Positions 4,683 through 25,210 of a stretch of DNA of 25,260 nucleotides are shown in pieces. Every line of letters begins with the position of its first letter. Positions within the stretch are counted from its first letter, which is position 1. The notes beneath the pieces are model-generated. The model ran no database searches and had not been told where the DNA came from. It was given only the letters and a program-made list of their open reading frames with translations. This stretch comes from a virus: the IMG/VR virus record IMGVR_UViG_3300023296_001674. One strand, 5' to 3'. Made by a program: the position numbers and the translations under genes.

Positions 4683-4757
4683 GGACCGGTAACTCAGAGG
4701 CAGAGTGTTCGCCTTTTAAGCGAAACGTCGGGATTTCGAAATTCCCCCGGTCTACCA
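4683..4757 (+). tRNA. tRNA, anticodon UUU (Lys), CCA encoded
   Basis: Acceptor ggaccgg/ccggtct, anticodon stem ttcgc/gcgaa, loop cttttaa, T-arm TTCGAAA. Confidence 0.75.
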
Positions 4758-4766
4758 ATCACTTAT

Positions 4767-4841
4767 GCACGATAGATAACTGGGGTTACGACGGCTTTTA
4801 CATGGCTGTTGTGGTGGGTTCGATTCCCACATCGTGTACCA
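4767..4841 (+). tRNA. tRNA, anticodon probably UAC (Val), weak D-stem
   Basis: Acceptor gcacgat/atcgtgt, T-arm gtgggTTCGATTcccac, loop tttacat. Confidence 0.6.
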
Positions 4842-4852
4842 ATACAATATAT

Positions 4853-4927
4853 GGACCGGTAGCTCAGAGGCAGAGCGTTCGCCTCTTAAGCGAAATGTCG
4901 AGATTTCGAAATTCTCCCGGTCTACCA
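4853..4927 (+). tRNA. tRNA, anticodon CUU (Lys)
   Basis: Close paralog of the 4683 gene with loop ctcttaa. Confidence 0.75.
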
Positions 4928-4936
4928 ATACCTTAT

Positions 4937-5011
4937 GCTCGATAGATAACTGGGGTTACGACGGCTTTAACATAGCTGTTGTGGTGGGTTCGATTCCCAC
5001 ATCGAGTACCA
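4937..5011 (+). tRNA. tRNA paralogous to the 4767 gene; loop ttaacat gives an apparent AAC anticodon (Val-like, A34)
   Basis: Acceptor gctcgat/atcgagt, perfect 5-bp anticodon stem cggct/agctg. Confidence 0.6.
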
Positions 5012-5094
5012 ATATTTTTGATACACATAATGGTTTAGTGTATTGATAAACCGGCTGTGGGTGAAGCGGTATAACAAATGTCTACCCCCAATAT

Positions 5095-5169
5095 GGTCGT
5101 GTAGCTCAAAGGCAGAGCATTCGCTTTACATGCGAAAGGTTGTGATATCGTAATTCACCACGACTACCA
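5095..5169 (+). tRNA. tRNA, anticodon UAC-like, non-canonical T-loop atcgtaa
   Basis: Acceptor ggtcgtg/cacgact, anticodon stem ttcgc/gcgaa, loop tttacat. Confidence 0.6.
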
Positions 5170-5224
5170 ATATTGCTTTTTAGTTGTATAGTATGCTATT
5201 ATTGTTTTTTATAGGAGATATATA

Positions 5225-5617
5225 ATGGAATATGCATGGAATGATAAAATAGTTGAAGCGAATTTTAATTTTGATTCTGCGTATGAACATACGGAATGGG
5301 GATGTGATGATGGATATACATCATTATCGGTGTTGATTAATCGATGCCAAAATATGATAAAACTAAGATACACAAATGTTAATCGCATCCCGCCAAAAGT
5401 GCCTATGCCGATAACGCCGTGGTCGTTTGTTCTTGATGACATAGATATAGTAGTATATATGACATTGCGGTGCTATGATATATTTCTTATGGACACAAAA
5501 ACGTTTGATTATAGGCAGCATTTTACTATTAAAATCGATGACGATATGGATGATAATATAATAATAGTGTCATCTGTTGATAATGTATATACAGAAGCAA
5601 TAAGAATTCTAAAATAA
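5225..5617 (+). CDS. hypothetical protein (130 aa)
   Basis: SD taggag upstream of ATG. Confidence 0.55.
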   Translation: MEYAWNDKIVEANFNFDSAYEHTEWGCDDGYTSLSVLINRCQNMIKLRYTNVNRIPPKVPMPITPWSFVLDDIDIVVYMTLRCYDIFLMDTKTFDYRQHFTIKIDDDMDDNIIIVSSVDNVYTEAIRILK

Positions 5618-5653
5618 TATCTAACGCAGTGCTAATCACATAAGCCGTTATTT

Positions 5654-5728
5654 GCAGGGGTAGCTCAGTGGTAGAGCGGTTGGTTGAAGCCCAGCGCGTG
5701 AGGAGTTCGATTCTCTTTCCCTGCACCA
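5654..5728 (+). tRNA. tRNA-Phe, anticodon GAA
   Basis: Canonical: gcagggg TA GCTCAGTGGTAGAGC ... loop ttgaagc ... GAGTTCGATTCTC ... CCA. Confidence 0.85.
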
Positions 5729-5740
5729 ATACAATAATAT

Positions 5741-5816
5741 GGAACCCAGGTATATCTGGTGAGTACGCGTGGTTGAAGTTCACGAGGACGCAGTTCGATC
5801 CTGCGGGGTTCCACCA
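5741..5816 (+). tRNA. tRNA, anticodon GAA (second, diverged Phe-like copy)
   Basis: Acceptor ggaaccc/gggttcc, anticodon stem cgtgg/tcacg, loop ttgaagt, T-arm cgcagTTCGATCctgcg. Confidence 0.75.
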
Positions 5817-5831
5817 ATCAAAGACCATTAT

Positions 5832-5906
5832 GGACCGTAGGTGTAATGGCTGCATCCGAGCCTTTTAAGCTCAGGGGACAGAGTTCGATTCTCTGATGGT
5901 CTACCA
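5832..5906 (+). tRNA. tRNA, anticodon UUU (second Lys-like copy)
   Basis: Acceptor ggaccgt/atggtct, loop cttttaa, T-arm cagagTTCGATTctctg. Confidence 0.65.
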
Positions 5907-5915
5907 ATAATCAAT

Positions 5916-5991
5916 GCCGTATTAGTGACACTGGCTAACACGCCTGTTTTGTAATCAGGAAAATGGGGATCGATACCTCAATATGGCACCA
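5916..5991 (+). tRNA. tRNA, anticodon UGU-like (Thr), non-canonical T-loop atcgata
   Basis: Acceptor gccgtat/atatggc 7/7, loop tttgtaa. Confidence 0.6.
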
Positions 5992-6008
5992 ATAAATAAT
6001 ACTATAGA

Positions 6009-6083
6009 GCCTCTGTAGTTAATCTGGTATAACGGTAGATTTGTAATCTTCAATGCGCGGTTCGAGTCCGTGTGGAGGCACCA
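6009..6083 (+). tRNA. tRNA, anticodon UGU-like (second Thr-like copy)
   Basis: Acceptor gcctctg/tggaggc, D-stem gtta/taac, T-arm cgcggTTCGAGTccgtg. Confidence 0.7.
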
Positions 6084-6089
6084 ATAAAA

Positions 6090-6854
6090 TTAATCATTGT
6101 GTAGTTGCGTTTTTTCATATTCATCGACATCAAGTTTTAATTGTTTATATGTGATAGATGATGTATTACGTTTTTTTACATTATCTTTCTGAAGCATTAT
6201 TTCACAATTTAATGGATGTGTAATATAATATGGATCATACTTGTTAACAATTGATTCATTTATAGATATTTTATGATCCCTCGCTACACCGTTTGAATTT
6301 TTCTTTGGGACATACCAACCATGTTTTTTTATTAAATCTAAATTGAGTAGATTGGGATAATCATTGACATCAAATTTGAAATAATATGGACGTTTCGTAG
6401 TTTGAAGTTCTTTTGCTGTTCTACCATATTGTTCAACGCAGCATTGACATTTTGATATATACCGATCTTTGGCGGTGAAAAGTGTAATACAGGTGGAGCA
6501 AGTTCTAAACCATACCATGGAATATTCACCATCGATATATTTTTTTAGTTTATCCCATCTTTTTGGATAATGACCAATATCTTTTATGATTTTGATATGA
6601 CTTTTACTCATTCGTTCTTTAGTTTCATTGCTATGTTTGCGACGGCTATTATTATATTTGGCGGCACAAGATTGATTACAATATTTCTTTTTTATAAGTG
6701 CTTCATCGTATGACCATGATTTGCCGCATTGGTTGCATGTTTTTGGATTTTTATTATATTCGGCAATGCGATGGTTTTTTTGATTTATTTGCGTTTTTCG
6801 TGAAGCTATAAATCCTAATTTACCAGCTTCAGATTTGGACAATTTACATGTCAT
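6090..6854 (-). CDS. HNH-family homing endonuclease (254 aa), one of four paralogs; N-terminal CxxC / C-N-Q-SCAAKYNNSRRK zinc-binding-like motif, C-terminal RDHxxS...HPxNC core
   Basis: SD aagga upstream of the ATG at 6854; conserved C-terminal block shared with ORFs 8344, 11473 and 14042. Confidence 0.75.
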   Translation of the reverse strand: MTCKLSKSEAGKLGFIASRKTQINQKNHRIAEYNKNPKTCNQCGKSWSYDEALIKKKYCNQSCAAKYNNSRRKHSNETKERMSKSHIKIIKDIGHYPKRWDKLKKYIDGEYSMVWFRTCSTCITLFTAKDRYISKCQCCVEQYGRTAKELQTTKRPYYFKFDVNDYPNLLNLDLIKKHGWYVPKKNSNGVARDHKISINESIVNKYDPYYITHPLNCEIMLQKDNVKKRNTSSITYKQLKLDVDEYEKTQLHND

Positions 6855-6967
6855 GGCATATTTTTCCTTGTTATAAATAACTATGGCGGTAGATCAATCC
6901 TTGTGTCTTTAGTGATAAGTGCTTCAACACTTGTCACGCCGCTACTACTATTTATAACTTATACTAA

Positions 6968-7061
6968 GTCGGATTTCCCTAACTGGTGTGGGTAGAATCC
7001 ATAATATGCACTGGGTGATCCTTATGTGCTGCACGTGGTTCGATTCCACGATCCGGCTCCA
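6968..7061 (+). tRNA. tRNA-like gene, 94 nt: good acceptor and T-arm, unresolved internal extension
   Basis: Acceptor gtcggat/atccggc (one G-U), T-arm cgtggTTCGATTccacg, CCA encoded. Confidence 0.4.
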
Positions 7062-7307
7062 ATTAATTTTGTTCAATTAAATTCGAATCACTGATTGAAC
7101 AATTGCTCATCCGGCGGGTTACATGAGCCACGCCATAACGGATTGAAATGAGCCATGCCGTTGGGTATGGATATCAGGAGTTTCGGTGATGAGCTACCAA
7201 TTAACTAAGGTGAACGGTAGTAACCTTTAATGTGCGGCAGTGGTGCAATTCCCTAACTGATTGAGTTCGACTCTCATTCGGGTCTAGATGACAAAACATT
7301 ATAATAT

Positions 7308-7391
7308 GGACGGTGATGTTAAGACTATGGCTGGGCCAGCGCAAGCCTCTTAAGCTTGTATAAAAGAGTTCGATTCTCTCACCGTCTTCCA
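7308..7391 (+). tRNA. tRNA, anticodon CUU (second Lys-like copy), 84 nt with about 9 extra nt in the D region
   Basis: Acceptor ggacggt/accgtct, anticodon stem caagc/gcttg, loop ctcttaa, T-arm TTCGATT. Confidence 0.5.
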
Positions 7392-7457
7392 ATTATGCAG
7401 GCCATAGATGTTCCCTTTGTCCATTATTGGGAACTGTGGATGAAAACAAAAACGAAA

Positions 7458-7527
7458 GCAGGGTTAATGGACTGTGTGTAAGTTTTGTGATTAAAAGGGA
7501 TGGTGCAAATCCAATTCCCCTGCGCCA
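7458..7527 (+). tRNA. degenerate tRNA-like gene (70 nt), weak T-arm
   Basis: Acceptor gcagggt/cccctgc 6/7 with encoded CCA; body related to the fragment at 9244. Confidence 0.3.
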
Positions 7528-7531
7528 AATT

Positions 7532-7604
7532 TGTTTGATCGTCTTTGGAATACAAGATACCGTTGTCGAAGGCGGAGACGTTGGTTCGAATCCAACTTGA
7601 ACAC
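7532..7604 (+). tRNA. tRNA without encoded CCA; ambiguous anticodon loop (canonical numbering gives GUC; only a 6- or 8-nt loop pairs well)
   Basis: Acceptor tgtttga/ttgaaca 7/7, T-arm gttggTTCGAATccaac. Confidence 0.5.
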
Positions 7605-7694
7605 TTATTGTTAGTAATGATTTTATGTACATAAATGATTTGCTAGGCGAAAGCCAATAGTTTGCTGGTTCTATTTCTTAAAAATCCTCTTATG

Positions 7695-7770
7695 GTAGGT
7701 GTAGTGTTAACGGTTAGCACGTCAGACTGTGACTCTGAAAGTGCCGGTTCAAATCCGGTCATTTACCCCA
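7695..7770 (+). tRNA. tRNA-His, anticodon GUG
   Basis: Anticodon stem tcaga/tctga, loop ctgtgac, T-arm gccggTTCAAATccggt. Confidence 0.8.
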
Positions 7771-7854
7771 AATTTAATGCTGCTTGAGTTCAGGGTTCCA
7801 AGTAGATATTGTGGCTAAACCTAGCCGGTTCTAGCGTGATAATAAATTTTTAAT

Positions 7855-7930
7855 GGCTACGTAGTAATCTGGGATTACGGTGCACTGTCGATGCACGTCG
7901 AGGAGGGTTCAATTCCCTTCGTAGCCGCCA
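7855..7930 (+). tRNA. tRNA-Asp, anticodon GUC
   Basis: Acceptor ggctacg/cgtagcc perfect, anticodon stem gtgca/tgcac, loop ctgtcga. Confidence 0.8.
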
Positions 7931-7932
7931 AT

Positions 7933-8004
7933 ACCCCAGCCGATGCATTCGGACTCGAGTTTTCGAAACTTGACGGGAAGGTTTGATTCCTTCTTGGGGT
8001 GCCA
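7933..8004 (+). tRNA. compact tRNA (72 nt) with a miniature D-arm, anticodon UCG-like (Arg)
   Basis: Acceptor accccag/ttggggt, T-arm gaaggTTTGATTccttc, loop tttcgaa. Confidence 0.5.
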
Positions 8005-8120
8005 ATTTAAAGAACGAGGGTGTAAACCGGTAGGAACTTACGTTGAACGGGATTTGCGGCAAAACCTACTTGCCAATTAACCTGTGATTTTAATAGTCGG
8101 TAGCACCCCGCAGAAATAAT

Positions 8121-8195
8121 GGTCTATTCGTATAGTGGCTAATACACCGGATTGTCGATCCGGGAACGAGAGTTCAATTCTCTCATAGACCGCCA
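8121..8195 (+). tRNA. tRNA-Asp, anticodon GUC (second copy)
   Basis: All four stems perfect: ggtctat/atagacc, gtat/atac, ccgga/tccgg, gagag/ctctc. Confidence 0.85.
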
Positions 8196-8200
8196 ATTAA

Positions 8201-8278
8201 GGCCCATCGGTCCAGCATGGAGTGGACATTTCCCTGTCACGGAAAAGATCACCGGTTCAAGTCCGGTATGGGTCGCCA
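8201..8278 (+). tRNA. tRNA, anticodon GUC-like (third copy), 10-nt D-loop
   Basis: Acceptor ggcccat/atgggtc, anticodon stem tttcc/ggaaa, loop ctgtcac. Confidence 0.7.
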
Positions 8279-8286
8279 AAATTCAA

Positions 8287-8362
8287 TTCAGATGACCAAG
8301 CAAGTGAACGGGACCGCCTGTTAAGCGGATATTGCAGGGAGCGTTACCCTGATCTGGAGCCA
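8287..8362 (+). tRNA. tRNA-Asn, anticodon GUU, non-canonical T-loop agcgtta
   Basis: Acceptor ttcagat/atctgga, loop ctgttaa, T-stem caggg/ccctg. Confidence 0.7.
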
Positions 8363-8991
8363 ATAACTTTATATTTTTTGTCCCATTCATTTATTCGATG
8401 GTATAAATCATATAATGATAAACTTGAATGACGATTTTTAGATGAATTTTCTGGCTGTGGCATTATCTTGCAGTTCGCTGGATGTGATATATGATTTGGG
8501 TCTATTTTGTTTACAAATCCATCATGTACACTATACATGTGATCTCTTGTTAATCCGTTTTTATTTTTGGTACTATGATACATGCCCTGTTGATGTATCA
8601 TTATAAAATCAAATTCTTCTGGAAATGTTTGAAATGAAAATATAAATTTACATTGTTCTTTATATTTTATCTTCTCAATCATGTATTCTTGTGGTGTCAC
8701 CCTCATGGCATTTGTGCAAGTAACTGCACAACTTCTTCCGCAATAATATTCACGAGTTCCGGTTATAGGGCTAAATTTATTATTACATGTTGGATTTTTA
8801 CACTCGATTAGTCGTTTTTGATATTTTGTTAAATTTTTTACCGATATTTCTTTTTTGGTGAATATGCAACTACATGTAATATGTGATATTTTACCGTTGC
8901 TTTTGCCATGCATACGTGAATGACCATTCAATGCCATTAAGGATTTAAATTGATTATCGCATATATTACATGTATAAATATCTTTAGACAT
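8344..8991 (-). CDS. HNH-family homing endonuclease paralog (216 aa from the MSKDIYTCNIC start)
   Basis: The ORF track extends further, but GGAGG SD precedes the ATG at 8991; same conserved C-terminal core. Confidence 0.7.
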   Translation of the reverse strand: MSKDIYTCNICDNQFKSLMALNGHSRMHGKSNGKISHITCSCIFTKKEISVKNLTKYQKRLIECKNPTCNNKFSPITGTREYYCGRSCAVTCTNAMRVTPQEYMIEKIKYKEQCKFIFSFQTFPEEFDFIMIHQQGMYHSTKNKNGLTRDHMYSVHDGFVNKIDPNHISHPANCKIMPQPENSSKNRHSSLSLYDLYHRINEWDKKYKVIGSRSG

Positions 8992-9080
8992 TATCAACCT
9001 CCATTGGTTGTTATAGTTTAGAAGATATGGGGAATTCCAGTTCTCTATATCTTCGTTAGTATTTATCAATAACATATTAT

Positions 9081-9166
9081 TCGGATATAGGAGAATTGGT
9101 AGACCCAGAAGATTGTTAATCTTCCGCAGCAATGCATTCCAGGTTCGAGTCCTGGTATCCGAGCCA
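9081..9166 (+). tRNA. type-II-like tRNA (86 nt, Leu-like D-arm GAATTGGTAGA, variable-arm hairpin) whose anticodon loop reads GUU
   Basis: Acceptor tcggata/tatccga perfect, anticodon stem gaaga/tcttc, loop ttgttaa, T-arm ccaggTTCGAGTcctgg. Confidence 0.65.
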
Positions 9167-9167: not shown

Positions 9168-9240
9168 TAACACCGTAGCGTAGAAAATAGTTACTTCGTT
9201 TCACTCACGACTGGAATGGGTTCGATTCCCATGCCCTGCG
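9168..9240 (+). tRNA. tRNA-like gene with D, anticodon and T arms but no matching 5' acceptor strand; no CCA
   Basis: T-arm atgggTTCGATTcccat; its 3' strand gccctgc pairs only with the downstream fragment at 9244. Confidence 0.35.
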
Positions 9241-9243
9241 TAA

Positions 9244-9684: not shown

Positions 9685-9759
<75 letters not shown>

Positions 9760-9849: not shown

Positions 9850-9923
9850 AGGGGTATCGTATAGTGGTAATACGGTGGATTCCAAACTCACAGACCGGGG
9901 TTCGATCCCTCGTTCCCCTGCCA
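9850..9923 (+). tRNA. tRNA-Trp, anticodon CCA
   Basis: D-stem gtat/atac, loop ttccaaa, T-arm cggggTTCGATCcctcg. Confidence 0.75.
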
Positions 9924-9939: not shown

Positions 9940-11166
9940 ATGCATTTTATAATAAGTATCGATAGTGTATCAACGGATAGTCGGCATTATGACTGTGCCA
10001 AAAGTGATGAAAACTGTTGGCTTGATATATACGATGGCAATATCTATAACGATACTATATTAACCAATGCATTTTCATATAAAAACAAAACGATAAAACT
10101 TGATAAAGGTTGGCATACATTAGACCGCGACAAAGATGTTGTATGGTTTAAGGGTTATTCAACAGAAGCAAGATTGATTGATAGGGTTGAAGCCCGTAAT
10201 TATTCATCAATGGATGGAAATTATTGTTTTATTGTGTTTGATAAAACGACAGAATGTATTAACATATATCATGATACCAATCGTGGATTTGGTATATATT
10301 ATACAGATTCTATTATAACCAATTTATATACAATCAAAACATGCGTTAAGTTTGACGGGTGTATCATGGTAGATCACAATGACGAAATAATTGTTTCATC
10401 GTTACAGACAACGTTCACATTGCCTGATATAATTAAAGACAAATCTATTGACGATATGGCTGCTATTATAGCGCCTATGATGATTAAGAAAATCGAAGGA
10501 TTTATGAAATATAATAATGTGGTTGATTTAGAAATACAAGCAACTGGCGGTTTAGATACATTAACGGTGCGTGCATTATTAGATATCTGCGCGATTGATT
10601 ATAAATTGATTGATATAAAACCATTTAAAGATGGATGCAACTGGACTAATGATACAAATTCAATGATGGATATATTATCAAAATATCATTGGGGATTTCA
10701 GCAATGCAATTATTATGATGATATTACATATGTTGCCACTGGTTTTTGGGGCGATGAGTTATTGATGCGCAATCCGCTTCAAGTTCATTGGATATTGAAT
10801 CATTATGATATTGATTTATCGAATGAATATACAAAGCACCCTGATTCATATATGCTAGGATATTTTCAACAAGCGTATAAAGAGAAACTTATAGAACGCG
10901 ATAAAATATTTTCCAATGAAAATGAATTATATCAATATTCATTAGATTATGCACTTGATGAACCACAGATAACGCATGTTGATAATGTTATAATGTTTTC
11001 ACCATTTAAGGGTATTGACATATATATGAAAACACTCAATATGACGAATGAGGCAATATTAGAACAGGTTATAAATGGTGCACTGCAAAAGAAAATTATA
11101 TACGATATTAATCCTAAGTTATTGGATTGCTTAGAAAAATATAAAAATAGAAGAATACCAGTGTAA
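9940..11166 (+). CDS. asparagine-synthetase-like protein (408 aa): AsnB-type block GNYCFIVFD...IYHDTNRGFGIYY and PP-loop-like TGGLDT, but no N-terminal catalytic Cys
   Basis: Motif recall of AsnB (MFAFALYD...GRDHLGIIPLYMGY; SGGLDS). Confidence 0.5.
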   Translation: MHFIISIDSVSTDSRHYDCAKSDENCWLDIYDGNIYNDTILTNAFSYKNKTIKLDKGWHTLDRDKDVVWFKGYSTEARLIDRVEARNYSSMDGNYCFIVFDKTTECINIYHDTNRGFGIYYTDSIITNLYTIKTCVKFDGCIMVDHNDEIIVSSLQTTFTLPDIIKDKSIDDMAAIIAPMMIKKIEGFMKYNNVVDLEIQATGGLDTLTVRALLDICAIDYKLIDIKPFKDGCNWTNDTNSMMDILSKYHWGFQQCNYYDDITYVATGFWGDELLMRNPLQVHWILNHYDIDLSNEYTKHPDSYMLGYFQQAYKEKLIERDKIFSNENELYQYSLDYALDEPQITHVDNVIMFSPFKGIDIYMKTLNMTNEAILEQVINGALQKKIIYDINPKLLDCLEKYKNRRIPV

Positions 11167-11228: not shown

Positions 11229-11498
11229 ATGGATAATAGTACATTAATAGCGTTAGGAAGTTTGTTGTTTGCCATGATTGGTGGATTTTGGGGTGTCATA
11301 ACATACATCCTTGGAATCATCAAGGTGGAAAACGTTGAACGTCGTGGTGTCCAAGAAAAATTATATATGCGCGATGATGTAGCCAAAGATGTAATGAACG
11401 AAAGTTTAACAGAAGTAAAAAGTACCATCCGTGATACGAATGATAGACTCATACGTGTAGAAACAATATTATATGAAAGAACTGATAGAACAAAATAA
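11229..11498 (+). CDS. small membrane protein (89 aa), one N-terminal TM helix
   Basis: Hydrophobic segment LIALGSLLFAMIGGFWGVITYILGII. Confidence 0.45.
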   Translation: MDNSTLIALGSLLFAMIGGFWGVITYILGIIKVENVERRGVQEKLYMRDDVAKDVMNESLTEVKSTIRDTNDRLIRVETILYERTDRTK

Positions 11499-12108
11499 AA
11501 TATGGTTTTTAAGCAAAACGGTAATACGTTGTATAAATAGTTATATGGTTGATTTAAGAAAGAGTTTGCAAACACCAAAAGTTTGCTGTATTGAATGTAA
11601 AACAATATTTAGAACTAATCATTTTGTTAGACACTCGAAGAAGCGATGTATTGAGTGGAAAAAGAAAAACGGCATGATCCCAAAAGGGAAGCGTGGCGGT
11701 TGGAATAAAGGATTAACGAAAATGACTAGTTCGTTGGTCAAAAAAGGAACCGATACTTATCGTCGCCGTTATGAAAATGGTGAATATACACGACGCACAC
11801 AAACCGATGATATAAAGAAACAATATTGGCAAGATTGTAAATTTAAATTCAATGTTTATAATTATCCTGAAATATTTGACTTAAATTTACTCGATAAATT
11901 TGGGTGGTATCATCCTGTAGAAAATCCAAGTGGCGTAAGTAGAGATCATATTATTTCTGTATCATATGGATGGAAAAATGGTATAGATTCGAATATTATT
12001 AATCATATAGCCAATTGTAAATTGATGATTCATTTAGAAAATAACAAAAAAAATAATCGATCTGATTTATTATTAGAAGAATTATTACAAAAAATACACT
12101 CTATGTAG
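11473..12108 (+). CDS. HNH-family homing endonuclease paralog (211 aa)
   Basis: SGVSRDHIISVSYGWKNGIDSNIINHIANCKLM core; N-terminal CxxC pairs. Confidence 0.7.
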   Translation: MKELIEQNKIWFLSKTVIRCINSYMVDLRKSLQTPKVCCIECKTIFRTNHFVRHSKKRCIEWKKKNGMIPKGKRGGWNKGLTKMTSSLVKKGTDTYRRRYENGEYTRRTQTDDIKKQYWQDCKFKFNVYNYPEIFDLNLLDKFGWYHPVENPSGVSRDHIISVSYGWKNGIDSNIINHIANCKLMIHLENNKKNNRSDLLLEELLQKIHSM

Positions 12109-12139: not shown

Positions 12140-12213
12140 GTTCCGTTGACAGAATGGTTATGTGCGTGGCTGCAACCCGCGTTATCCCGGTTCGATTCCG
12201 GGACGGAACTCCA
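12140..12213 (+). tRNA. tRNA-Cys, anticodon GCA
   Basis: Acceptor gttccgt/acggaac perfect, anticodon stem cgtgg/ccgcg, loop ctgcaac, T-arm cccggTTCGATTccggg. Confidence 0.75.
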
Positions 12214-12221: not shown

Positions 12222-12296
12222 GCCCGGTTCGTCCAACGGTTAGGACACTCTCCCGATAAGAGAGGAATAGTGGTTCGATTCCACTACTGGGTACCA
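12222..12296 (+). tRNA. tRNA-Ile, anticodon GAU
   Basis: D-stem gtcc/ggac, anticodon stem ctctc/gagag, loop ccgataa, T-arm agtggTTCGATTccact. Confidence 0.8.
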
Positions 12297-12317: not shown

Positions 12318-12391
12318 GGTCCGTTAGCTTAATAGAAAAGCACATGGCTGATAACCGTGCGACGGTGGAGCGTAACCATCACGGACTACCA
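12318..12391 (+). tRNA. tRNA, anticodon GAU (second Ile-like copy), non-canonical T-loop agcgtaa
   Basis: Acceptor ggtccgt/acggact, D-stem gctt/aagc, loop ctgataa. Confidence 0.65.
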
Positions 12392-12507: not shown

Positions 12508-12581
12508 GCGGGTATCGTATAATGGAATTACTACACATTGCCTATGTGTAGACGGGGGTTCGATTCCCCCTACCCGCTCCA
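12508..12581 (+). tRNA. tRNA, anticodon GCC (second Gly copy)
   Basis: Acceptor gcgggta/tacccgc perfect, anticodon stem acaca/tgtgt, loop ttgccta, T-arm gggggTTCGATTccccc. Confidence 0.75.
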
Positions 12582-12851: not shown

Positions 12852-12938
12852 AGAAGTACTTTGTATTGGTGAACTCAGCAGTCTCCAAAACTGTGTCGCA
12901 TTTGTGACTGGTAGGTTCGAATCCTACTACTTCTGCCA
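12852..12938 (+). tRNA. type-II-like tRNA (87 nt, variable-arm hairpin) whose anticodon loop reads CCA (Trp-like)
   Basis: Acceptor agaagta/tacttct perfect, anticodon stem gcagt/actgt, loop ctccaaa, T-arm gtaggTTCGAATcctac. Confidence 0.65.
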
Positions 12939-13329: not shown

Positions 13330-13400
13330 ACCTCCGCTGATGGTTCAGACATAAGCTTGCGAAGCTTGTTGGGAAAGTTCGATTCTTTTCGGGGGTTCCA
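13330..13400 (+). tRNA. compact tRNA (71 nt), anticodon loop ttgcgaa (GCG, Arg-like)
   Basis: Acceptor acctccg/cgggggt, T-arm gaaagTTCGATTctttt. Confidence 0.5.
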
Positions 13401-13441
13401 ATATTGTTATAGCTATGGAAATTAGTTCCTTCTTATCCCAA

Positions 13442-13509
13442 CCTGTAGGTCGTAGGTTCGAATCCTGCTCCTCGCGCCAATTATGCGGGGATAGCTCAGT
13501 GGTAGAGCA
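13442..13509 (+). tRNA. split/permuted-looking tRNA locus: 3' portion (13442-13479, anticodon 3' stem through encoded CCA), then attat, then 5' portion (13485-13509, acceptor plus D-arm GCGGGGATAGCTCAGTGGTAGAGCA)
   Basis: The 3' acceptor tcctcgc pairs 7/7 with the downstream gcgggga; anticodon 3' stem cctgt pairs with the downstream actgg. Confidence 0.4.
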
Positions 13510-13562
13510 ACTGGCAATTTTACTGGTTCCAATTATTATAGCAATATTTTATTAAATAGGTC

Positions 13563-13765: not shown

Positions 13766-13843
13766 TGACTAGTAGCTCAGTGGTTTAGAGCGGGGAGTTC
13801 TAAACTCTCGACAGCGTTGGTTCAAATCCAACCTGGTCAACCA
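13766..13843 (+). tRNA. tRNA with anticodon CUA (amber-suppressor-like); U1-A72 acceptor
   Basis: D-arm GCTCAGTGGTTTAGAGC, anticodon stem gggag/ctctc, loop ttctaaa, T-arm gttggTTCAAATccaac, CCA encoded. Confidence 0.6.
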
Positions 13844-13850: not shown

Positions 13851-14022
13851 GCGGGTATCGTATAATGGTATTATCGCAGCCTTCCATGTGATATGTTTAA
13901 CATATCTCAGGTTGAGCCATTTATTGGCTCCTTGAAGGTCGAGGGTTCAGACCCCATCCGGTTTAAGCCCGGTAGACCAACTTAAGCTGATGACGGGAGT
14001 TCGATTCTCCCTACCCGCTCCA
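13851..14022 (+). tRNA. tRNA-Gly(UCC)-like gene interrupted by a structured insertion of about 98 nt in the anticodon loop (about 13887-13984)
   Basis: 5' part gcgggta TC GTATAATGGTATTAT... and 3' part ...GACGGGAGTTCGATTCTCCCTACCCGCTCCA match the Gly tRNAs at 9685 and 12508; the 7/7 acceptor pairing exists only across the insertion. Confidence 0.5.
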
Positions 14023-14041
14023 ATATTTGATAAATAGTTAT

Positions 14042-14818
14042 ATGAAATGTAAACAATGTAAAATATCATTTACCCCTATCCCACAAGCAAAAAAAGGTAT
14101 ATTTTGTTCGCACGATTGTCATAATGTATACCAGCGCGTAAATACTCGTGAGCAATACTTAAAAAATCCCAAACGGTGTATTTTTTGTGATGATATAATA
14201 TCATATAGAGAAAATATAAAAGTGGCGAAGTTTTGCAATAGGTCTTGCGGGGCAAAATATAATAATAAAAGACGTACAGAATGCGGATACACCCCAAGTC
14301 ATAAAAAATGGTCTAGTGGTAAAATATCTGCTAAAATGTCATCAAAAATGCGCCGTGCGGATATCAAATCAAGTGTCGTGTTTGGTGATTTTACTATAAT
14401 AACATTTGCTATATGCAATATTACGAATAAACCATATGTTCTACAAACACCGCATGGTGGTATAAAGCAAATATCACCATATATTAAATCATCTAAACAG
14501 ATATATTATGAGCAAGCCAAATTTCGATTTAATGTATATGACTATCCAGATATATTTGATATAACACTTTTAGAAAAATATGGATGGTATACATGTCCCG
14601 GCAAGAAACGAAAAAATCAAAAAAAGAATATAAATGGTGTAAGTAGAGATCATATAATATCTATCAATGATGGATTTAAGAATGGGTATGATCCATATAT
14701 TTTAGCACATCCTGCTAATTGTCGATTGATTAAACAAGTGGATAATGTTAAAAAATTAGATAAATCTAATATGTCATATGACGAGTTATTGATTAACATA
14801 AAACAATGGAATGGATAG
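14042..14818 (+). CDS. HNH-family homing endonuclease paralog (MKCKQCK start; the ORF track's TTG at 14027 overlaps the tRNA), TAG stop
   Basis: CNRSCGAKYNNKRR motif and NGVSRDHIISINDGFKNGYDPYILAHPANCRL core. Confidence 0.7.
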   Translation: MKCKQCKISFTPIPQAKKGIFCSHDCHNVYQRVNTREQYLKNPKRCIFCDDIISYRENIKVAKFCNRSCGAKYNNKRRTECGYTPSHKKWSSGKISAKMSSKMRRADIKSSVVFGDFTIITFAICNITNKPYVLQTPHGGIKQISPYIKSSKQIYYEQAKFRFNVYDYPDIFDITLLEKYGWYTCPGKKRKNQKKNINGVSRDHIISINDGFKNGYDPYILAHPANCRLIKQVDNVKKLDKSNMSYDELLINIKQWNG

Positions 14819-14825: not shown

Positions 14826-14900
14826 GCCCCTATAGTACAATGGTTAATATGATCGCCCGGTAAGCGATAGATGAAAGTTCGATTCTTTCTAGAGGCACCA
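14826..14900 (+). tRNA. tRNA-Thr, anticodon GGU
   Basis: Anticodon stem atcgc/gcgat perfect, loop ccggtaa, T-arm gaaagTTCGATTctttc. Confidence 0.8.
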
Positions 14901-17241: not shown

Positions 17242-17325
17242 GCGCGTAGCCGGTATGTTGGTACTACCACTGGTCTTCCAAACCAGCGCGAAAGCATTGG
17301 GGTTTGATTCCCCCTACCCGCTCCA
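17242..17325 (+). tRNA. tRNA, anticodon UCC (Gly-like), with an 11-nt extended variable region (84 nt)
   Basis: Acceptor gcgcgta/tacccgc 6/7, D-stem ggta/tacc, anticodon stem ctggt/accag, loop cttccaa, T-arm ggggTTTGATTcccc. Confidence 0.6.
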
Positions 17326-17330: not shown

Positions 17331-17405
17331 GCCCCATTCGTATAGTGGTCATTATCTCTGTGTCGTACTCAGAGGACGGCAGTTCGATTCCGCCATGGGG
17401 CACCA
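17331..17405 (+). tRNA. tRNA, anticodon CGU-like (Thr); 9-nt loop alternative
   Basis: Acceptor gccccat/atggggc perfect, anticodon stem ctctg/cagag, T-loop TTCGATT, CCA encoded. Confidence 0.65.
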
Positions 17406-20279: not shown

Positions 20280-20328
20280 TAAAATATAGACAAACACTTC
20301 GTTTGGGTGTATAAATATAGAATAATAT

Positions 20329-20436
20329 TTCCAAGTAGCTCAGATGGTAGAGCGTCTGACTGTGGAACAGATGAGCCTAAAGCTTTGAAGTTCAAATTTA
20401 ATCAGAATGTCGGCGGTTCGATCCCGTCCTTGGAAG
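20329..20436 (+). tRNA. tRNA-His-like (anticodon GUG, second copy) with a structured insertion of about 40 nt in the variable position; no CCA
   Basis: Acceptor ttccaag/cttggaa perfect, D-arm GCTCAGATGGTAGAGC, loop ctgtgga, T-arm ggcggTTCGATCccgtc. Confidence 0.5.
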
Positions 20437-20575
20437 CAAATAAAAGTTTTAGGTCGTTCAATAAGCCATGTTTAGCGGCATGGTTAGGACAAGCGGGTAT
20501 AACCGCTAAATGGTATGCTGCAATCGGGGTTAACACTTATTGCAACGAGGTGAAAATCCACCCATAGAAATCAAT

Positions 20576-20667
20576 GCCTCGGTAGCTCAGAAAAGCAACG
20601 TAAGTTGTAGTGTAGTAGCAGGTGACTGAACCTCACCGTGTCGGTAGTTCGAATCTATCCTGGGGCA
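20576..20667 (+). tRNA. tRNA-like gene, 92 nt: canonical 3' two-thirds (anticodon stem ggtga/tcacc, loop ctgaacc = GAA) with about 17 extra nt between D and anticodon arms; no CCA
   Basis: Acceptor gcctcgg/ctggggc, T-arm ggtagTTCGAATctatc. Confidence 0.45.
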
Positions 20668-20711: not shown

Positions 20712-20787
20712 AGTTCCGTAGCTCAGTGGATAGAGCGCAACTTTGCGAAAGTTGAAGTCGGTGGTTCGATCCCACTCGGGACTGCCA
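20712..20787 (+). tRNA. tRNA, anticodon loop ttgcgaa (GCG, Arg-like, second copy)
   Basis: Acceptor agttccg/cgggact, D-arm GCTCAGTGGATAGAGC, anticodon stem caact/agttg, T-arm ggtggTTCGATCccact. Confidence 0.75.
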
Positions 20788-21311: not shown

Positions 21312-21384
21312 GCCTCCGCCGCTGGGTCGGAGTTGGGACTTCTAATCCCAAACTGGATGAGTTCGATTCTCTCCGGGGGCACCA
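21312..21384 (+). tRNA. tRNA-Arg, anticodon UCU
   Basis: Acceptor gcctccg/cgggggc, 6-bp anticodon stem ttggga/tcccaa, loop cttctaa, T-loop TTCGATT. Confidence 0.65.
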
Positions 21385-21392
21385 ATATTTCC

Positions 21393-21421: not shown

Positions 21422-21449
21422 TATCCTTTAACAGCAAGGAGTTTGTTCA

Positions 21450-21689: not shown

Positions 21690-21698
21690 GGAGATAAA

Positions 21699-21929: not shown

Positions 21930-21945
21930 CAAACGGGATTAAGCG

Positions 21946-22176
21946 ATGACTGAATTTACAATGGAACAAGCTGCGCATGTTATTGCGTTAAATGTCGAAA
22001 AGATTAACAAACTGGCACAAGAAACTAAAAATCTTGCTAATGAGCATGGATTAGAGTTTGAATTACAATTGGGTGATACTACTGATGCGCCCTTGCAGTT
22101 TGACGAGAATTGGGATTCTAGCGACTGTGGTTATGATGACCCACCGCATTGGGATTCATCCGACTGTGAGTATTGA
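21946..22176 (+). CDS. small acidic protein, diverged member 3 of the tandem family (76 aa)
   Basis: Shared N-terminal A.HVIALNVEKINKLAQE..NLANEHGLEF pattern; repeated WDSSDC C-terminal motif. Confidence 0.5.
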   Translation: MTEFTMEQAAHVIALNVEKINKLAQETKNLANEHGLEFELQLGDTTDAPLQFDENWDSSDCGYDDPPHWDSSDCEY

Positions 22177-22192
22177 TTGAAAGGACATCGTT

Positions 22193-23101: not shown

Positions 23102-23103
23102 CA

Positions 23104-23352
23104 ATGATATATGTTTCTTTTTATAATTATTCATTGGATGCTTATGCAATAGTAGAAGCAGAAAACGTGGATATAGCAAAAGGCAAGTTTAAAAATTATT
23201 CTACCAGTGCTGATGGTTGGAGTAGTGGCGATGTGTTAAAATTTCCTAGAGTTAGCGTTCATGGAAATCTTTATACGATAGAAACTATTGAAGCATATAT
23301 ATCAGATACTCGTAGAAATTCAAAATCTATAGTTCTAATAAGGGATAAATAA
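23104..23352 (+). CDS. hypothetical protein (82 aa), coupled to the nucleotidyltransferase gene
   Basis: Starts 2 nt after the upstream TAG. Confidence 0.5.
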   Translation: MIYVSFYNYSLDAYAIVEAENVDIAKGKFKNYSTSADGWSSGDVLKFPRVSVHGNLYTIETIEAYISDTRRNSKSIVLIRDK

Positions 23353-23561
23353 TGAGAGATATAAATCGCATACCAGAAATTCTAGAGGCAATATATAATG
23401 CTTGGACTATTAATACTGAGTGTAGATTGGGACAAGTGCTTAATAATTCAATTCTTGGCAATCAGAGATTGGTTGATATTGAAGATGAGGAATTGCTTAA
23501 GGGGTTGAATGATTATTATGATAAATTAAATTTTAAGACGCATACAAAGGGTGACGTTTAG
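23352..23561 (+). CDS. hypothetical protein (69 aa), TAATG-coupled
   Basis: Overlapping stop/start. Confidence 0.5.
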   Translation: MRDINRIPEILEAIYNAWTINTECRLGQVLNNSILGNQRLVDIEDEELLKGLNDYYDKLNFKTHTKGDV

Positions 23562-23634
23562 GACGTTAGTCTGGGGGCAGTATAACTAGCACATCAGATA
23601 CCTGTATGTAAGGGTCATTTCAAGGAATGGCTGT

Positions 23635-23712
23635 TGACGCAGTATTCCGAAGAGAACGACGGTTGGTTGTAGGGCTGATACTGCCTGATGGGTTCGATTC
23701 CCGCTGTGTCAC
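23635..23712 (+). tRNA. tRNA-like gene: 7/7 acceptor (tgacgca/tgtgtca) and GGTTCGATTCC T-arm, unresolved anticodon arm, no CCA
   Basis: Manual fold only. Confidence 0.3.
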
Positions 23713-23768
23713 TAATTAATGTAACAAAAGGAGAAAGACAATGCTTAGAGGAACACGTTTGATGACTG

Positions 23769-24368
23769 GTGCGGAAGCATCTACATACACGAACACTGTT
23801 GACACACTACGGAGGTGTCTTCATCGATAATAATGTCGAAGAAGTTATAGTTCCGTCGTTATGGGAACAGCAGACATTTATTGATAAAGCAGGAAGTGAA
23901 ATTGTAAATCAGATGTGGGCATTTGAAGATAAGAAAAATCGCCCCGTATGTTTGATACCAGAAGTTACTGGTGTTATACAAGAAATGTGGCGCGATGATT
24001 GGAGTAAATCCAAACCAAAGCCATATTCTATTTTTTATGTGAATCGTTGTTATCGTTATGAACGACCACAGAAGGGTAGATATAGAGAATTCACACAAAT
24101 CGGATTAGAAATTCTTGGTGATACATCAGGGAATGATTACGATATGGCAATTAATTTATTGCAAAAGTGTCTCGATTGTTTTACTATAGATTATAAACTT
24201 ACAGAAACGGTACAACGCGGTTTGGCGTATTATGTTGATGATGGGTTTGAAGTCGAATGTGAGAAGTTGGGCGCACAGAAGCAAATTGCTGGTGGTGGTC
24301 GATACAATGAAGGTATTGGTTGGGCTATCGGCGTTGATAGATTAATATTGGGGATTGATGATGACTAG
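23769..24368 (+). CDS. minimal class II aaRS catalytic core of the HisRS/HisZ type (motif 1 region FEDKKNRPVCLIPEVT, motif 2 YRYERPQKGRYREFTQ, motif 3 GGGRYNEG), lacking the insertion and anticodon-binding domains
   Basis: Motif recall against E. coli HisS; an upstream ATG at 23741 with SD aaggag opens a different frame (MLRGTRL...), suggesting a frameshift at about 23790. Confidence 0.65.
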   Translation: MRKHLHTRTLLTHYGGVFIDNNVEEVIVPSLWEQQTFIDKAGSEIVNQMWAFEDKKNRPVCLIPEVTGVIQEMWRDDWSKSKPKPYSIFYVNRCYRYERPQKGRYREFTQIGLEILGDTSGNDYDMAINLLQKCLDCFTIDYKLTETVQRGLAYYVDDGFEVECEKLGAQKQIAGGGRYNEGIGWAIGVDRLILGIDDD

Positions 24369-24774
24369 TTTACACCTTATTACTTCACCGCGTGAATATG
24401 TGACAACTATGACACATAACTCGGATTATCTTCAGTCTTGCAAGACTAATAAACCATCATGGAAAAAAGCGGATCGTTCATTTCATACACTCGAAAATGG
24501 TGACAAATTATTTAATGTGTACTATGATAATGGTAAATTATGCGTGCAAAGATGGTATCAAAAAAGTGCTAAAATTGAATCTAATGATCTTCATCGATTG
24601 GATGGTCCAGCATATATATCTTATTATGAAAATGGCATGTATTATCGATCTTCGTGGTGGATCAATGGAAATTCTATTTCAGGCAAAGTGATGCGATCAT
24701 GGTTAAAAGAAAATAATATTTCTTCGCCATATTCAGATGAAGATCAAATGGCAATAATATTAAGGTGGGGATGA
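24355..24774 (+). CDS. hypothetical protein (139 aa) with an internally repeated LHR.DGPA...NG segment
   Basis: ATGATGA overlap with the HisRS-like stop. Confidence 0.5.
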   Translation: MMMTSLHLITSPREYVTTMTHNSDYLQSCKTNKPSWKKADRSFHTLENGDKLFNVYYDNGKLCVQRWYQKSAKIESNDLHRLDGPAYISYYENGMYYRSSWWINGNSISGKVMRSWLKENNISSPYSDEDQMAIILRWG

Positions 24775-24962
24775 AAACTGATATATCATCAGATGATGAA
24801 AAAGAATTGATGTATTATATTAAAATGTATAGTCTTGGTTTTCATGGCGCAATTAATTTATTGCGATCTGATGGTATGTTAGAATATTTGGTTGATACTG
24901 AAACAGTTAAGTTAGATATTTTAACACACGCAATAGCGAAGAAAATACGTGATACTAAATAA
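24765..24962 (+). CDS. hypothetical protein (65 aa)
   Basis: Overlaps the upstream stop. Confidence 0.45.
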   Translation: MGMKTDISSDDEKELMYYIKMYSLGFHGAINLLRSDGMLEYLVDTETVKLDILTHAIAKKIRDTK

Positions 24963-24966
24963 CAAT

Positions 24967-25043
24967 GGGCGATTAATCTGGCGAAAATAGGGGTAAAAGG
25001 TGAAGCTCCCCCTTCAGGCGGGTTCAATTCCACGCATCGTCCA
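24967..25043 (+). tRNA. degenerate tRNA-like gene: acceptor gggcgat/atcgtcc, 8-nt T-loop, 6-nt anticodon-type loop, no CCA
   Basis: Manual fold only. Confidence 0.3.
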
Positions 25044-25056
25044 CAAATACCCTATG

Positions 25057-25128
25057 GCTGGGGTGCTAGGAACACAGTTGTCCTTCATATGGATAATGCG
25101 CAGGGGGCGGAACCCTGACCAGCTACCA
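25057..25128 (+). tRNA. tRNA, anticodon CAU (Met/Ile2-like), non-canonical T-loop ggcggaa
   Basis: Anticodon stem tgtcc/ggata, loop ttcatat, acceptor ggctggg/accagct 6/7, CCA encoded. Confidence 0.55.
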
Positions 25129-25135
25129 ATACCAT

Positions 25136-25210
25136 GCTCTTGTAACATAATGGCTAATGTGAGCGTCTCATAAACGTTTGAAGAAGGTTCGATTCCTTCC
25201 TGGAGTACCA
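25136..25210 (+). tRNA. tRNA-Met-like, anticodon CAU
   Basis: D-stem acat/atgt, anticodon stem agcgt/acgtt, loop ctcataa, T-arm gaaggTTCGATTccttc. Confidence 0.7.

Follow-up and report, generated by a model that had tools for sequence, protein, structure and literature searches.

A phage tRNA island in which most anticodons occur at least twice, on very different tRNA bodies

The IMG/VR virus record IMGVR_UViG_3300023296_001674 contains a stretch of 25,260 nucleotides (from here on the window, at its full length) in which tRNA genes are strung out between positions 3394 and 25210, a region that we call the island. The curated gene set of this island comprises about 36 tRNA genes ending in CCA, with 21 anticodons for only 13 amino acids, so few because most anticodons occur twice in very different bodies that are for the most part intact, a pattern that points to selection for backup tRNAs of another structure. 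Thirteen anticodons are present at least twice, namely UUU, CUU, UAC, GAA, UGU, GUC (three times), GCG, GUU, GCC, UCC, CCA, GAU and CAU, and a fourteenth, GUG, is added if a copy without CCA is counted. The observation is real, and the redundancy is more extreme than in most viral tRNA arrays. We give about even weight to the proposal that the island arose by accretion, that most of the second copies would be working isodecoders and that two scaffolds per anticodon would buffer the phage against tRNA targeting. Genes are named below by the position of their first letter; all tRNA and tRNA-like features lie on the plus strand.

Default ARAGORN called 27 genes and Rfam, at gathering scores, 26. 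An earlier note on this DNA had listed 27 genes and 13 sets of genes with like anticodons, all of which were reproduced with ARAGORN, Rfam/Infernal and a CCA-anchored search (see below). Default ARAGORN alone gave UUU at 4683 and 5832, CUU at 4853, GAA at 5654 and 5741, UGU at 6009, GUG at 7695, GUC at 7855, 8121 and 8201, GUU at 9081, GCC at 9685 and 12508, CCA at 9850, GAU at 12222 and 12318, GCG at 20712 and CAU at 25136. The gathering score of the general tRNA model RF00005 is 29 bits, above which a permissive E-value scan added 5741, 13851 and 3566; the second copies that pass it are 5741, 5832, 5916, 9081, 12318, 13851 and 20329. Genes 4767 (27.1 bits) and 13330 (24.7 bits) fall just under it, 4937 had no RF00005 match and fitted best to the tRNA-Sec model (24.6 bits), and a full-length RF00005 match was absent for 7308, 7933, 8287, 21312 and 25056. 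Rfam or low-threshold ARAGORN recovered 5916, 12852, 13330, 13851, 17242, 20329 and 20576.

Because nearly all good genes end with N73-CCA followed by AT, the window was searched for CCA with a hairpin of 5 bp and a 7-nt loop at fixed distance and with a closable 7-bp acceptor. This search recovered 7308, 8287 and 25056 and, in addition, an Arg(UCG) gene at 7933-8004 that was absent from the earlier list. A pair of Val(UAC) genes and several relics are likewise new relative to that list. For 7933, 13330 and 25056 the minimum-energy fold is a cloverleaf; for 8287 it contains the acceptor and the T arm only, the GUU anticodon arm coming from the manual parse. Genes 8287 and 25056, uncalled by the standard tools, each combine an acceptor of 7 or 6 bp with a T arm, an NCCA end and an anticodon arm, and 7308 is represented by a partial low-threshold ARAGORN call (7322-7391) and a local Rfam match, with a 7-bp acceptor from the manual parse.

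A cloverleaf (7-bp acceptor, 5-bp anticodon stem, 7-nt loop with U33 and a purine at 37, 5-bp T stem) is formed by 34 of the 36 CCA-ending genes, a count whose underlying structural parse left out 13851. The exceptions are 6968, in which the anticodon arm is absent, and 13851, which has an insert in the anticodon loop; 7308 fits apart from an insert at the 7/8 junction. The canonical elbow (G18 and G19 with T54-Psi55-C56) is present in all genes except 5095 (T-loop ATCGTAA), 5916 (ATCGATA), 7933 (TTTGATT), 8287 (AGCGTTA), 12318 (AGCGTAA), 17242 (TTTGATT) and 25056 (GGCGGAA); the four T-loops quoted in the earlier note (AGCGTTA, AGCGTAA, GGCGGAA and ATCGATA) are correct. The D-loops of 7933, 8287 and 12318 lack GG, and the D region of 25056 has GG in the manual parse.

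With default ARAGORN, 6 of the 19 anticodons called in the island are duplicated versus 21 of 348 (6%) in 24 other viral arrays with at least 10 tRNAs (Fisher p = 0.0013) and 128 of 1350 (9.5%) in 83 further viral arrays; in the curated gene set of the island the fraction is 13 of 21. Since 3 of the 83 further arrays reach 28-32%, the island stands at the extreme end yet is not unique. Body-divergent duplicates recur in other large viral arrays: in the 83 arrays same-anticodon duplicates are 68% identical at the median, with more than 90% in just 3 of 105 pairs, and about one fifth of the duplicates consist of a normal copy and a long-arm copy.

Within the island, identity between the members of a same-anticodon pair is 57-75%, compared with a median of 63% for all pairs of island tRNAs, and the only recent pairs are tandem copies (Lys, 92% and Val, 95% identity). 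The Lys genes 4683 and 4853 are built on a chassis (D-loop AGAGGCA, D arm AGCTCAGAGGCAGAGC, T arm GAGATTTCGAAATTCTC, U53.U61 mismatch) that is very common in viral contigs and carried at least 17 different anticodons among the first 120 matches, which suggests a radiation by remoulding of anticodon and acceptor. The chassis of 4683 is also found in an Asn gene of Vibrio phage 2.275.O, and Val 5095 is a variant of it that the scan pattern does not match. Genes 8287 and 25056 have the T stem CAGGG/CCCTG in common, and the T-loops AGCGTWA and GGCGGAA (8287, 12318 and 25056) were absent among 522 other viral tRNAs; other odd features, such as long variable arms and T-loop variants of the A54/T58 type like ATCGTAA, recur in other viruses. 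The ordinary copies match hundreds of phage records. Nine low-scoring copies, queried together by blastn against 50,697 phage genomes, gave no convincing match (the only hit was 31 nt long with E = 0.008). As pair identity is at background level and several chassis are present, the island is a mosaic of several tRNA lineages.

The earlier note had seen in the pairs a systematic duplicate set. This did not hold up, since the pairs are as dissimilar as unrelated tRNAs, have no common signature, belong to several lineages and include relics and disrupted genes; one coherent second set is not supported by the sequences. The division of each set into a canonical and a diverged copy applies to about 9 of the 13 sets, whereas both GCC and all three GUC genes are ordinary and both GUU and both UCC genes are non-standard.

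A different question is whether the second copies are decaying. In the acceptor, anticodon and T helices, non-pairs amount to 11 of 289 in the 17 genes scoring below 50 bits or undetected versus 9 of 289 in 17 high-scoring genes; the deviations fall in the D arm and the elbow. Identity was read from the discriminator and the 1-72, 2-71 and 3-70 pairs by the rules for E. coli, and by these rules all copies of Asn, Trp, Gly, Thr and Asp have the expected features: U1-A72 and G73 in both Asn genes, A1-U72 and G73 in both Trp genes, G1-C72, C2-G71, G3-C70 and U73 in all four Gly genes, G1-C72, C2-G71 and A73 in all four Thr genes (GCC/GGC), and G1-C72, G2-C71 and G73 in all three Asp genes. The expected features are missing from 20329 (no G-1:C73), 7308 (U73) and 13330 (U73). 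G1.U72 with A73 is present in every Lys, Val, Ile and CAU gene, except that 7308 has U73; G1.U72, a genome-specific trait common to both members of these pairs, occurs in about 6-25% of the Lys, Val, Ile and CAU tRNAs of other viral arrays. The odd genes stand in register with the ordinary ones, separated by spacers of 2-21 nt and with the same CCA-AT ends.

One event in the island is recent: a unit of a Lys and a Val gene was duplicated in tandem over 170 bp (4675-4844 and 4846-5014). Ten tRNA positions differ between the two units, and none of the changes is disruptive. Three are compensatory double substitutions (Lys 10-25, Lys 50-64 and Val 3-70), two are at position 34 (UUU to CUU and UAC to AAC) and created new isoacceptors, one converts G.U to A-U and one lies in the variable loop. 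This holds for the Val genes too, although their Rfam scores are no higher than about 25-27 bits. Because the helices are intact, the acceptor features are shared and the tandem duplicates have changed in a compensatory manner, most second copies are predicted to be maintained, functional tRNAs and not products of decay. The statement of the earlier note that the second copies do not look like random decay therefore stands for most of them, and fails for some relics.

These relics are what one would cite for neutral birth and death, in which recombination driven by endonucleases, together with duplication, would supply surplus second copies on their way to becoming pseudogenes, the pairs being unselected. 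The CCA-less relics at 3394, 3566, 7532 and 9174, the insert-bearing genes 7308, 13851, 20329 and 20576, the lack of a usable anticodon arm in 6968 and the many second copies that score below 45 bits or escape detection all fit such a course. The equal integrity of helices in low- and high-scoring copies, the identity features common within pairs and the compensatory nature of the recent changes do not, nor does the recurrence of ATCGTAA-type T-loops and long variable arms in other viruses, and we regard neutral birth and death as rather unlikely.

The second copies might also serve to raise the supply of tRNA for the most-used codons of an AT-rich phage. AAA, GAU, AAU, AUU/AUA and UUU are indeed among the top codons and have duplicated tRNAs, Val(AAC) suits GUU, the top Val codon, and the same anticodons are most often duplicated in other viral arrays, where duplicates concentrate on CAU, GUU, GUC, UUU, UGG and GAU. 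However, the codon counts (approximate, an overlapping stretch having been counted twice) show duplication also for Trp (1.7% of codons), for the anticodon GUG (His, 2.7%; the second copy, 20329, is no His acceptor) and for Arg-GCG, whereas Glu, Leu, Tyr, Ser, Ala, Pro and Gln, with about 36% of the codons, have no tRNA in the island. Moreover, identical copies would serve this purpose, yet there are only two recent pairs, both of which have switched their anticodon. Gene dosage alone explains little, and as the reason for the pairs it seems to us quite improbable.

In the order of the map, the island begins with two tRNA-like elements without CCA, a relic with a 6-nt anticodon loop at 3394-3465 (tRNA-??? 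in ARAGORN, 46.9 bits in Rfam) and a composite of tRNA fragments with two T arms at 3566-3683 (31.3 bits). The tandem units follow: Lys(UUU) at 4683-4757, on the widespread viral chassis with the T arm GGGATTTCGAAATTCCC and called by both ARAGORN and Rfam, and Val(UAC) at 4767-4841, which has an aberrant D arm, and then their recent duplicates with switched wobble base, Lys(CUU) at 4853-4927 and Val(AAC) at 4937-5011, the last three called by ARAGORN. The second Val(UAC) gene, the chassis variant at 5095-5169, was found by both programs, as were Phe(GAA) at 5654-5728 and Thr(UGU) at 6009-6083. Between the latter two are a second body for Phe(GAA) at 5741-5816 (ARAGORN; 45.1 bits in Rfam), a second body for Lys(UUU) at 5832-5906 (ARAGORN; 42.5 bits) and the Thr(UGU) gene with the unusual T-loop at 5916-5991 (43 bits; low-threshold ARAGORN). 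At 6968-7061 there is a long-arm tRNA-like gene of 94 nt with intact acceptor, T arm and CCA and without a convincing anticodon arm (26.6 bits with the tRNA-Sec model), at 7308-7391 a Lys(CUU)-like gene with U73 and 11-13 nt inserted between acceptor and D arm, and at 7532-7604 a relic without CCA (permissive Rfam, low-threshold ARAGORN). Two hairpin-rich elements in this part (7104-7199 and 7458-7527) end in NCCA-AT and have closable ends of 6 bp; neither a T arm nor an anticodon arm is recognisable in them, and Rfam gave no match.

His(GUG) at 7694-7770, with G-1:C73, and the Asp(GUC) genes at 7855-7930 and 8201-8278 were called by both programs, and so was the Asp(GUC) gene between them at 8121-8195 (64 bits in Rfam). 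The Arg(UCG) gene at 7933, missed by ARAGORN and Rfam, has a short D arm. Asn(GUU) is encoded by the gene with the remodelled elbow at 8287-8362 and by an 86-nt gene at 9081-9166 (ARAGORN, Rfam), after which comes a CCA-less relic at 9174-9241 (low-threshold ARAGORN). Further genes found by both programs are Gly(GCC) at 9685-9758 and 12508-12581, Trp(CCA) of ordinary length at 9850-9923, Cys(GCA) at 12140-12213, Ile(GAU) at 12222-12296 and, with remodelled elbow and the D-loop AATAGAA, at 12318-12391, Thr(GGU) at 14826-14900 and Thr(CGU) at 17331-17405. The second Trp(CCA) gene (12852-12938, 87 nt) and one of the two Gly(UCC) genes (17242-17325, 84 nt) came from permissive Rfam and low-threshold ARAGORN; the other Gly(UCC) gene is at 13851-14022 (38.9 bits). 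Arg(GCG) is present as a non-canonical gene with a small D arm at 13330-13400 and as an ordinary one at 20712-20787 (ARAGORN; 62.5 bits), and Arg(UCU) at 21312-21384 has atypical D and T arms (ARAGORN). The tRNA-like elements 20329-20437 and 20576-20667 are discussed below. The two CAU genes at the end of the island, 25056-25128 with the remodelled elbow and the ordinary 25136-25210 (ARAGORN, Rfam), may differ in identity (Met or Ile2).

The genes of the island decode all codons of Lys, Thr, Gly and Arg and several other amino acids. Leu, Ser, Tyr, Ala, Glu, Gln and Pro are without a tRNA between 3394 and 25210; there may be a second tRNA island elsewhere in the 570-kb genome (see below). Two wobble choices are unusual for a bacterial system, namely Val(AAC) in 4937 and Arg(GCG) in 13330 and 20712 in place of Arg(ACG). 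At 13766-13843 both programs found an amber suppressor tRNA(CUA) with U1-A72 and A73. Recoding of TAG as its background was rejected: with TAG as sense, open reading frames (ORFs) lengthen less than with TGA as sense and are merged no more often, and about one seventh of the ORFs end in TAG. The window region uses the standard code, and recoding is not visible there.

Long variable arms (class II) are a property of tRNAs for Leu, Ser, Tyr and Sec. In the island, long-arm bodies are confined to the anticodons of Asn, Trp and Gly. Their variable regions form hairpins, of 14 nt in 9081 (3-bp stem, GCAA cap), 16 nt in 12852 (5-bp stem) and 11 nt in 17242 (2-3 bp, GAAA), two of the three with GNRA loops, and 12852 and 17242 fit the tRNA-Sec model better than the general tRNA model. 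With class II tRNAs they have in common a variable region that is a stem-loop of at least 10 nt; they differ from them by their anticodons (GUU, CCA and UCC) and by the acceptor identity features of Asn, Trp and Gly. An origin from the ordinary partners by simple insertion is not plausible for Trp and Asn, where identity is at background; for Gly 17242 such a derivation from 12508 (78% identity) is plausible. Allo-tRNAs (attributed to Mukai and colleagues, 2017) reportedly have an acceptor/T geometry of 8/4 or 9/3, and because the geometry of 9081, 12852 and 17242 is 7/5, this reading was dropped.

How widespread long-arm tRNAs with the CCA anticodon are was determined with a pattern in which CTCCAAA and GGTTCRANTCC are separated by 20-30 nt. 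Of the first 120 matches in IMG/VR, 65 were real tRNA(CCA) genes with a variable region of 11-21 nt; about 55 of these 65 have G73, 29 have A-U and 20 have G.U as their 1-72 pair, and of the 54 with a hairpin 32 have GNRA loops. Among prokaryotes (one genome per species, 185,579 species) only 5 of the first 120 matches were real, all five in loci with 1-9 tRNA genes and one of them identical to a viral sequence, which amounts to a roughly 27-fold enrichment in viruses when the non-tRNA matches are taken as the yardstick of sequence scanned. Gene 12852 has all four features of the class (CCA anticodon, variable region of 11-21 nt, A1-U72 or G1.U72, and G73). The 83 viral arrays contain further long-arm class I tRNAs (Asn 11 of 86, Ile 10 of 97, Lys 8 of 109, Cys 5 of 53 and Trp 3 of 57), and on some viral contigs, e.g., L015 and L088, there are long-arm versions of five class I tRNAs. 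A named counterpart of 12852 is the 84-nt tRNA-Trp of the cultured Vibrio phage VBP47 (HQ634194), with CCA anticodon, a 13-nt variable region and G73, which belongs to the same class; it differs in that VBP47 has no ordinary tRNA-Trp beside it, and it is annotated simply as tRNA-Trp. Next to it (L129 1585-1662) is a pseudo 'tRNA-OTHER' in whose enlarged loop ARAGORN reads the four-base anticodon UGUG. The literature searched contained no paper describing the 84-nt gene of VBP47 and no description of long-arm Trp tRNAs or of duplicated phage isoacceptors, and the long-arm architectures appear to be both virus-enriched and undescribed.

Two genes of the island have an insert directly after the anticodon. 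In 13851 the insert is 98 nt long and folds into three hairpins, and its exact removal in silico leaves a 74-nt tRNA-Gly(UCC). In 20329 (54.1 bits in Rfam) GUG lies in a loop enlarged by about 35-38 nt, around which Infernal aligns the perfect stem UCUGA/UCAGA; the GUG gene with an insert reported in the earlier note is thus present, with the insert in the anticodon loop and not in the variable region. Since it is without G-1:C73 and without CCA, 20329 is by identity not a histidine acceptor. Gene 20576 (Rfam) has a GAA loop, a 26-nt D-loop and no CCA. An 86-aa gene of the public assembly (20307-20567) overlaps 20329 and the structured spacer 20440-20575, and is probably a spurious call.

Group I introns occur in bacterial tRNA genes, and introns at 37/38 spliced by proteins are found in archaea and eukaryotes. 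The inserts of 13851 and 20329 resemble them in their position directly behind the anticodon. A group I intron, with about 200 nt or more and a group I core, is excluded because the inserts are too short and have no Rfam match; no intron or ribozyme family of Rfam matched them at E values up to 10. A small ribozyme was also rejected, as CUGAUGA is present at the 3' junction and the remainder of a hammerhead core is absent. No splicing enzyme was seen in the flanks. Together with 7308 and 6968, the elements 20329 and 20576 are probably relics or not tRNAs.

Genes of this kind, expanded, CCA-less or perhaps with odd elbows, could alternatively be tRNA-like RNAs that do not decode, acting as decoys for nucleases, as partners in a Ro/Y-RNA system or as regulators. 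The lack of CCA in 20329 and 20576, the missing histidine identity of 20329 and the structured insert in the anticodon loop of 13851 would agree with this, and so would a YrlA-like Y RNA at 13400-13548, a permuted tRNA-like module of T arm, loop-closed acceptor stem and D arm, closed by a 13-bp terminal stem (fold z-score -2.7). It matched the Rfam YrlA model at 32.4 bits (E = 4.5e-5, local, model positions 24-84 only), far below the gathering score of 69 of RF02553. Two ORFs with TROVE (Ro60-like) matches (26.9 bits at a cut-off of 23, and 21.2 bits) are found about 15 kb upstream of this element, 1.2-3.4 kb upstream of the window start (L007 6037-6786 and 7832-8278); they are parted by an ORF of 317 aa with DUF7487, which suggests a split or invaded Ro gene. 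YrlA RNAs working with Rsr/Ro60 likewise have the T arm, the closed acceptor stem, the D arm and the long terminal stem, and the differences are the low score and the apparently split TROVE gene; the element is not part of the isoacceptor pairs. A non-decoding role could apply to only about five genes, the other second copies having 7-nt loops, U33, purine 37, an encoded CCA and cognate identity features, and we hold it to be an unlikely explanation of the pairs.

The window has a G+C content of 31-43%, and megablast against the 50,697 phage genomes gave no near match to it. Proteins encoded in the window are found on contigs of up to 570,750 bp. The tRNA set was read from the window plus 9.4 kb upstream and 7.9 kb downstream of it on the 570,750-bp contig, and neither flank contains a tRNA gene, the tRNA genes being confined to 3394-25210. 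A second assembly of the same phage differed by one base in 21 kb. Four paralogous ORFs between the tRNA genes encode putative homing endonucleases, at 6090-6854 and 8344-9000 (upper coordinate about 9000) on the minus strand and at 11473-12108 and 14027-14818 on the plus strand. All four belong to phrog_23051, a family weakly linked to HNH and endonuclease VII families. Among cultured and deposited phages, homologs are restricted to phages of jumbo and mega size (Vibrio phage 2.275.O, GAP32-like phages, the 735-kb LR756501 and Lak), where they sit within tRNA islands; this identifies the window as the tRNA island of a huge, uncultured phage.

Upstream the flank codes, besides the TROVE fragments, for ClpX and IF3. 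Downstream, about 3.3 kb past the window end (L006 16365-18179), it encodes a full-length AspRS of the bacterial type (637 bits); the island itself has three tRNA-Asp genes. Within the window there are genes for a dual-specificity phosphatase, for a thymidine kinase and a fatty acid desaturase (precomputed Pfam assignments), for a protein with the C-terminal domain of ribosomal L7/L12 (16800-17129, Pfam 68 bits), directly upstream of the tRNA pair 17242/17331, and for a fragment of 199 aa similar to the catalytic core of HisRS (23769-24368; 133 bits with the hisS model, far below its cut-off). The 408-aa ORF at 9940-11166 had been considered lysidine synthetase-like for its TGGLDT motif, and this was dropped for want of any Pfam, NCBIfam, PHROG or PDB match. 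Promoter and terminator scans gave counts near the shuffled expectation and were not used. Relatives were sought in IMG/VR with peptide-pattern scans and an exact DNA pattern, and none was close; in protein searches with two island genes the 408-aa protein reached at best 30% identity, and the thymidine kinase 50% on contigs of about 2 kb.

According to the proposal of an accreted island, tRNAs of different lineages would have entered by recombination with other phages, probably with the help of the endonucleases, and local tandem duplication followed by anticodon switching would have added genes. Both members of most pairs would be used in translation, and having each anticodon on two scaffolds would keep translation going if a tRNA-targeting defence of the host, or alternatively the phage's own attack on host tRNAs, disabled one of them. 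A minority, namely 7308, 20329, 20576, 6968 and, unless its insert is removed, 13851, would have relic or non-decoding roles. The weakest step is the reason for keeping both copies, for which evasion of tRNA-targeting defences is our best guess. The earlier note had offered three functions, a second tRNA set tuned to another host, resistance to host anticodon nucleases and regulatory RNAs derived from tRNA; judged by the published record, nuclease resistance seems the most plausible of these.

In published cases, bacterial defences put particular tRNAs out of action, and infection succeeds again when the phage supplies tRNA variants (PMC10264068, PMC11464382, PMC11555353). Variants in the anticodon loop escape tRNA-targeting immunity (PMC10264068), a phage tRNA-Tyr acts against a retron effector (PMC11555353), and the tRNA-Lys, tRNA-Thr and tRNA-Asn variants of phage T5 neutralise the nuclease AriB of PARIS (PMC12409363, PMC11464382), which recognises U36-A41, with positions 39-41 among them, as well as the D-loop and depends on additional contacts outside the anticodon (PMC12409363).

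Several points weigh against the proposal. The members of a pair mostly have the same anticodon loop, and the published evasion mutations are in or beside that loop. The second copies 7308, 8287 and 25056 were not or only partly called by the standard tools, and several relics and genes with inserts are evidence that some decay takes place in the island. The tRNA set covers the window and its flanks out of the full genome, both sets of comparison arrays were gathered via tRNA sequence patterns and are not random samples, and conservation of single second copies is not measurable because the collections searched hold no close relative.

A bolder form, which we put forward tentatively and think rather unlikely, is that large phages would deliberately keep each critical anticodon on two structurally orthogonal scaffolds, so that no single tRNase or toxin that reads the tRNA body could silence a codon. 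The second scaffold would then be a class-II-shaped tRNA for Trp or Asn, a tRNA-Gly whose variable region is extended or a tRNA whose elbow is remodelled, a specification that we hold just as tentatively. If true, the long-arm tRNA-Trp and the other long-arm forms of class I would be an undescribed, virus-specific architecture, and phage tRNAs could also escape the phage's own attack on host tRNAs.

Phage tRNAs have come to be regarded as weapons against immunity systems that cut or modify tRNAs, the known cases being single genes with few changes near the anticodon; the island suggests a broader strategy, with two very different bodies per anticodon. Its shapes are outside the textbooks, with extended variable arms in tRNAs for Trp, Asn and Gly and elbows lacking the universal contacts of G18-G19 with T-Psi-C. 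If the genes work, they would show how far a tRNA may stray from the canonical form without losing its ability to be charged and used, and they would be natural scaffolds for orthogonal translation and substrates from which to learn what tRNA-targeting defence nucleases recognise. For annotation it matters that five likely genes (7308, 7933, 8287, 13330 and 25056) were missed by the standard tools or remained below threshold.

The tRNAs known to escape PARIS, Lys-UUU, Thr-UGU and Asn-GUU, are all present in the island, each of them twice, and the two copies differ in the 3' strand of the anticodon stem and in the D-loop, i.e., in parts read by AriB. Positions 36-41 are UAAUCU in Asn 9081 and UAAGCG in Asn 8287, with the differences in the stretch 39-41, and UAAUCA in Thr 5916 and UAAUCU in Thr 6009; both Lys-UUU copies have G39. 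These differences fit a bet-hedging role, for which they would be circumstantial evidence. In the published cases there is one phage copy, a few bases off the host tRNA near the anticodon, whereas in the island it is two phage copies that diverge from one another throughout the body, elbow and variable arm included.

In the tRNA islands of Vibrio phage 2.275.O, Cronobacter phage GAP32 and LR756501 the tRNA genes are likewise dispersed among small ORFs, and endonucleases of the same family lie inside. LR756501 (735 kb, uncultured) has two genes for Thr-UGU, of 73 and 88 nt, side by side and an 86-nt gene for Val-UAC, and Vibrio phage 2.275.O has an 83-nt gene for Thr-UGU and an unannotated one for Val-AAC (L250 11148-11220). 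These pairs aside, the islands of the jumbo and mega phages have nearly one gene per anticodon in the stretches examined, whereas the island described here has 13 of its 21 anticodons duplicated and seven amino acids missing.

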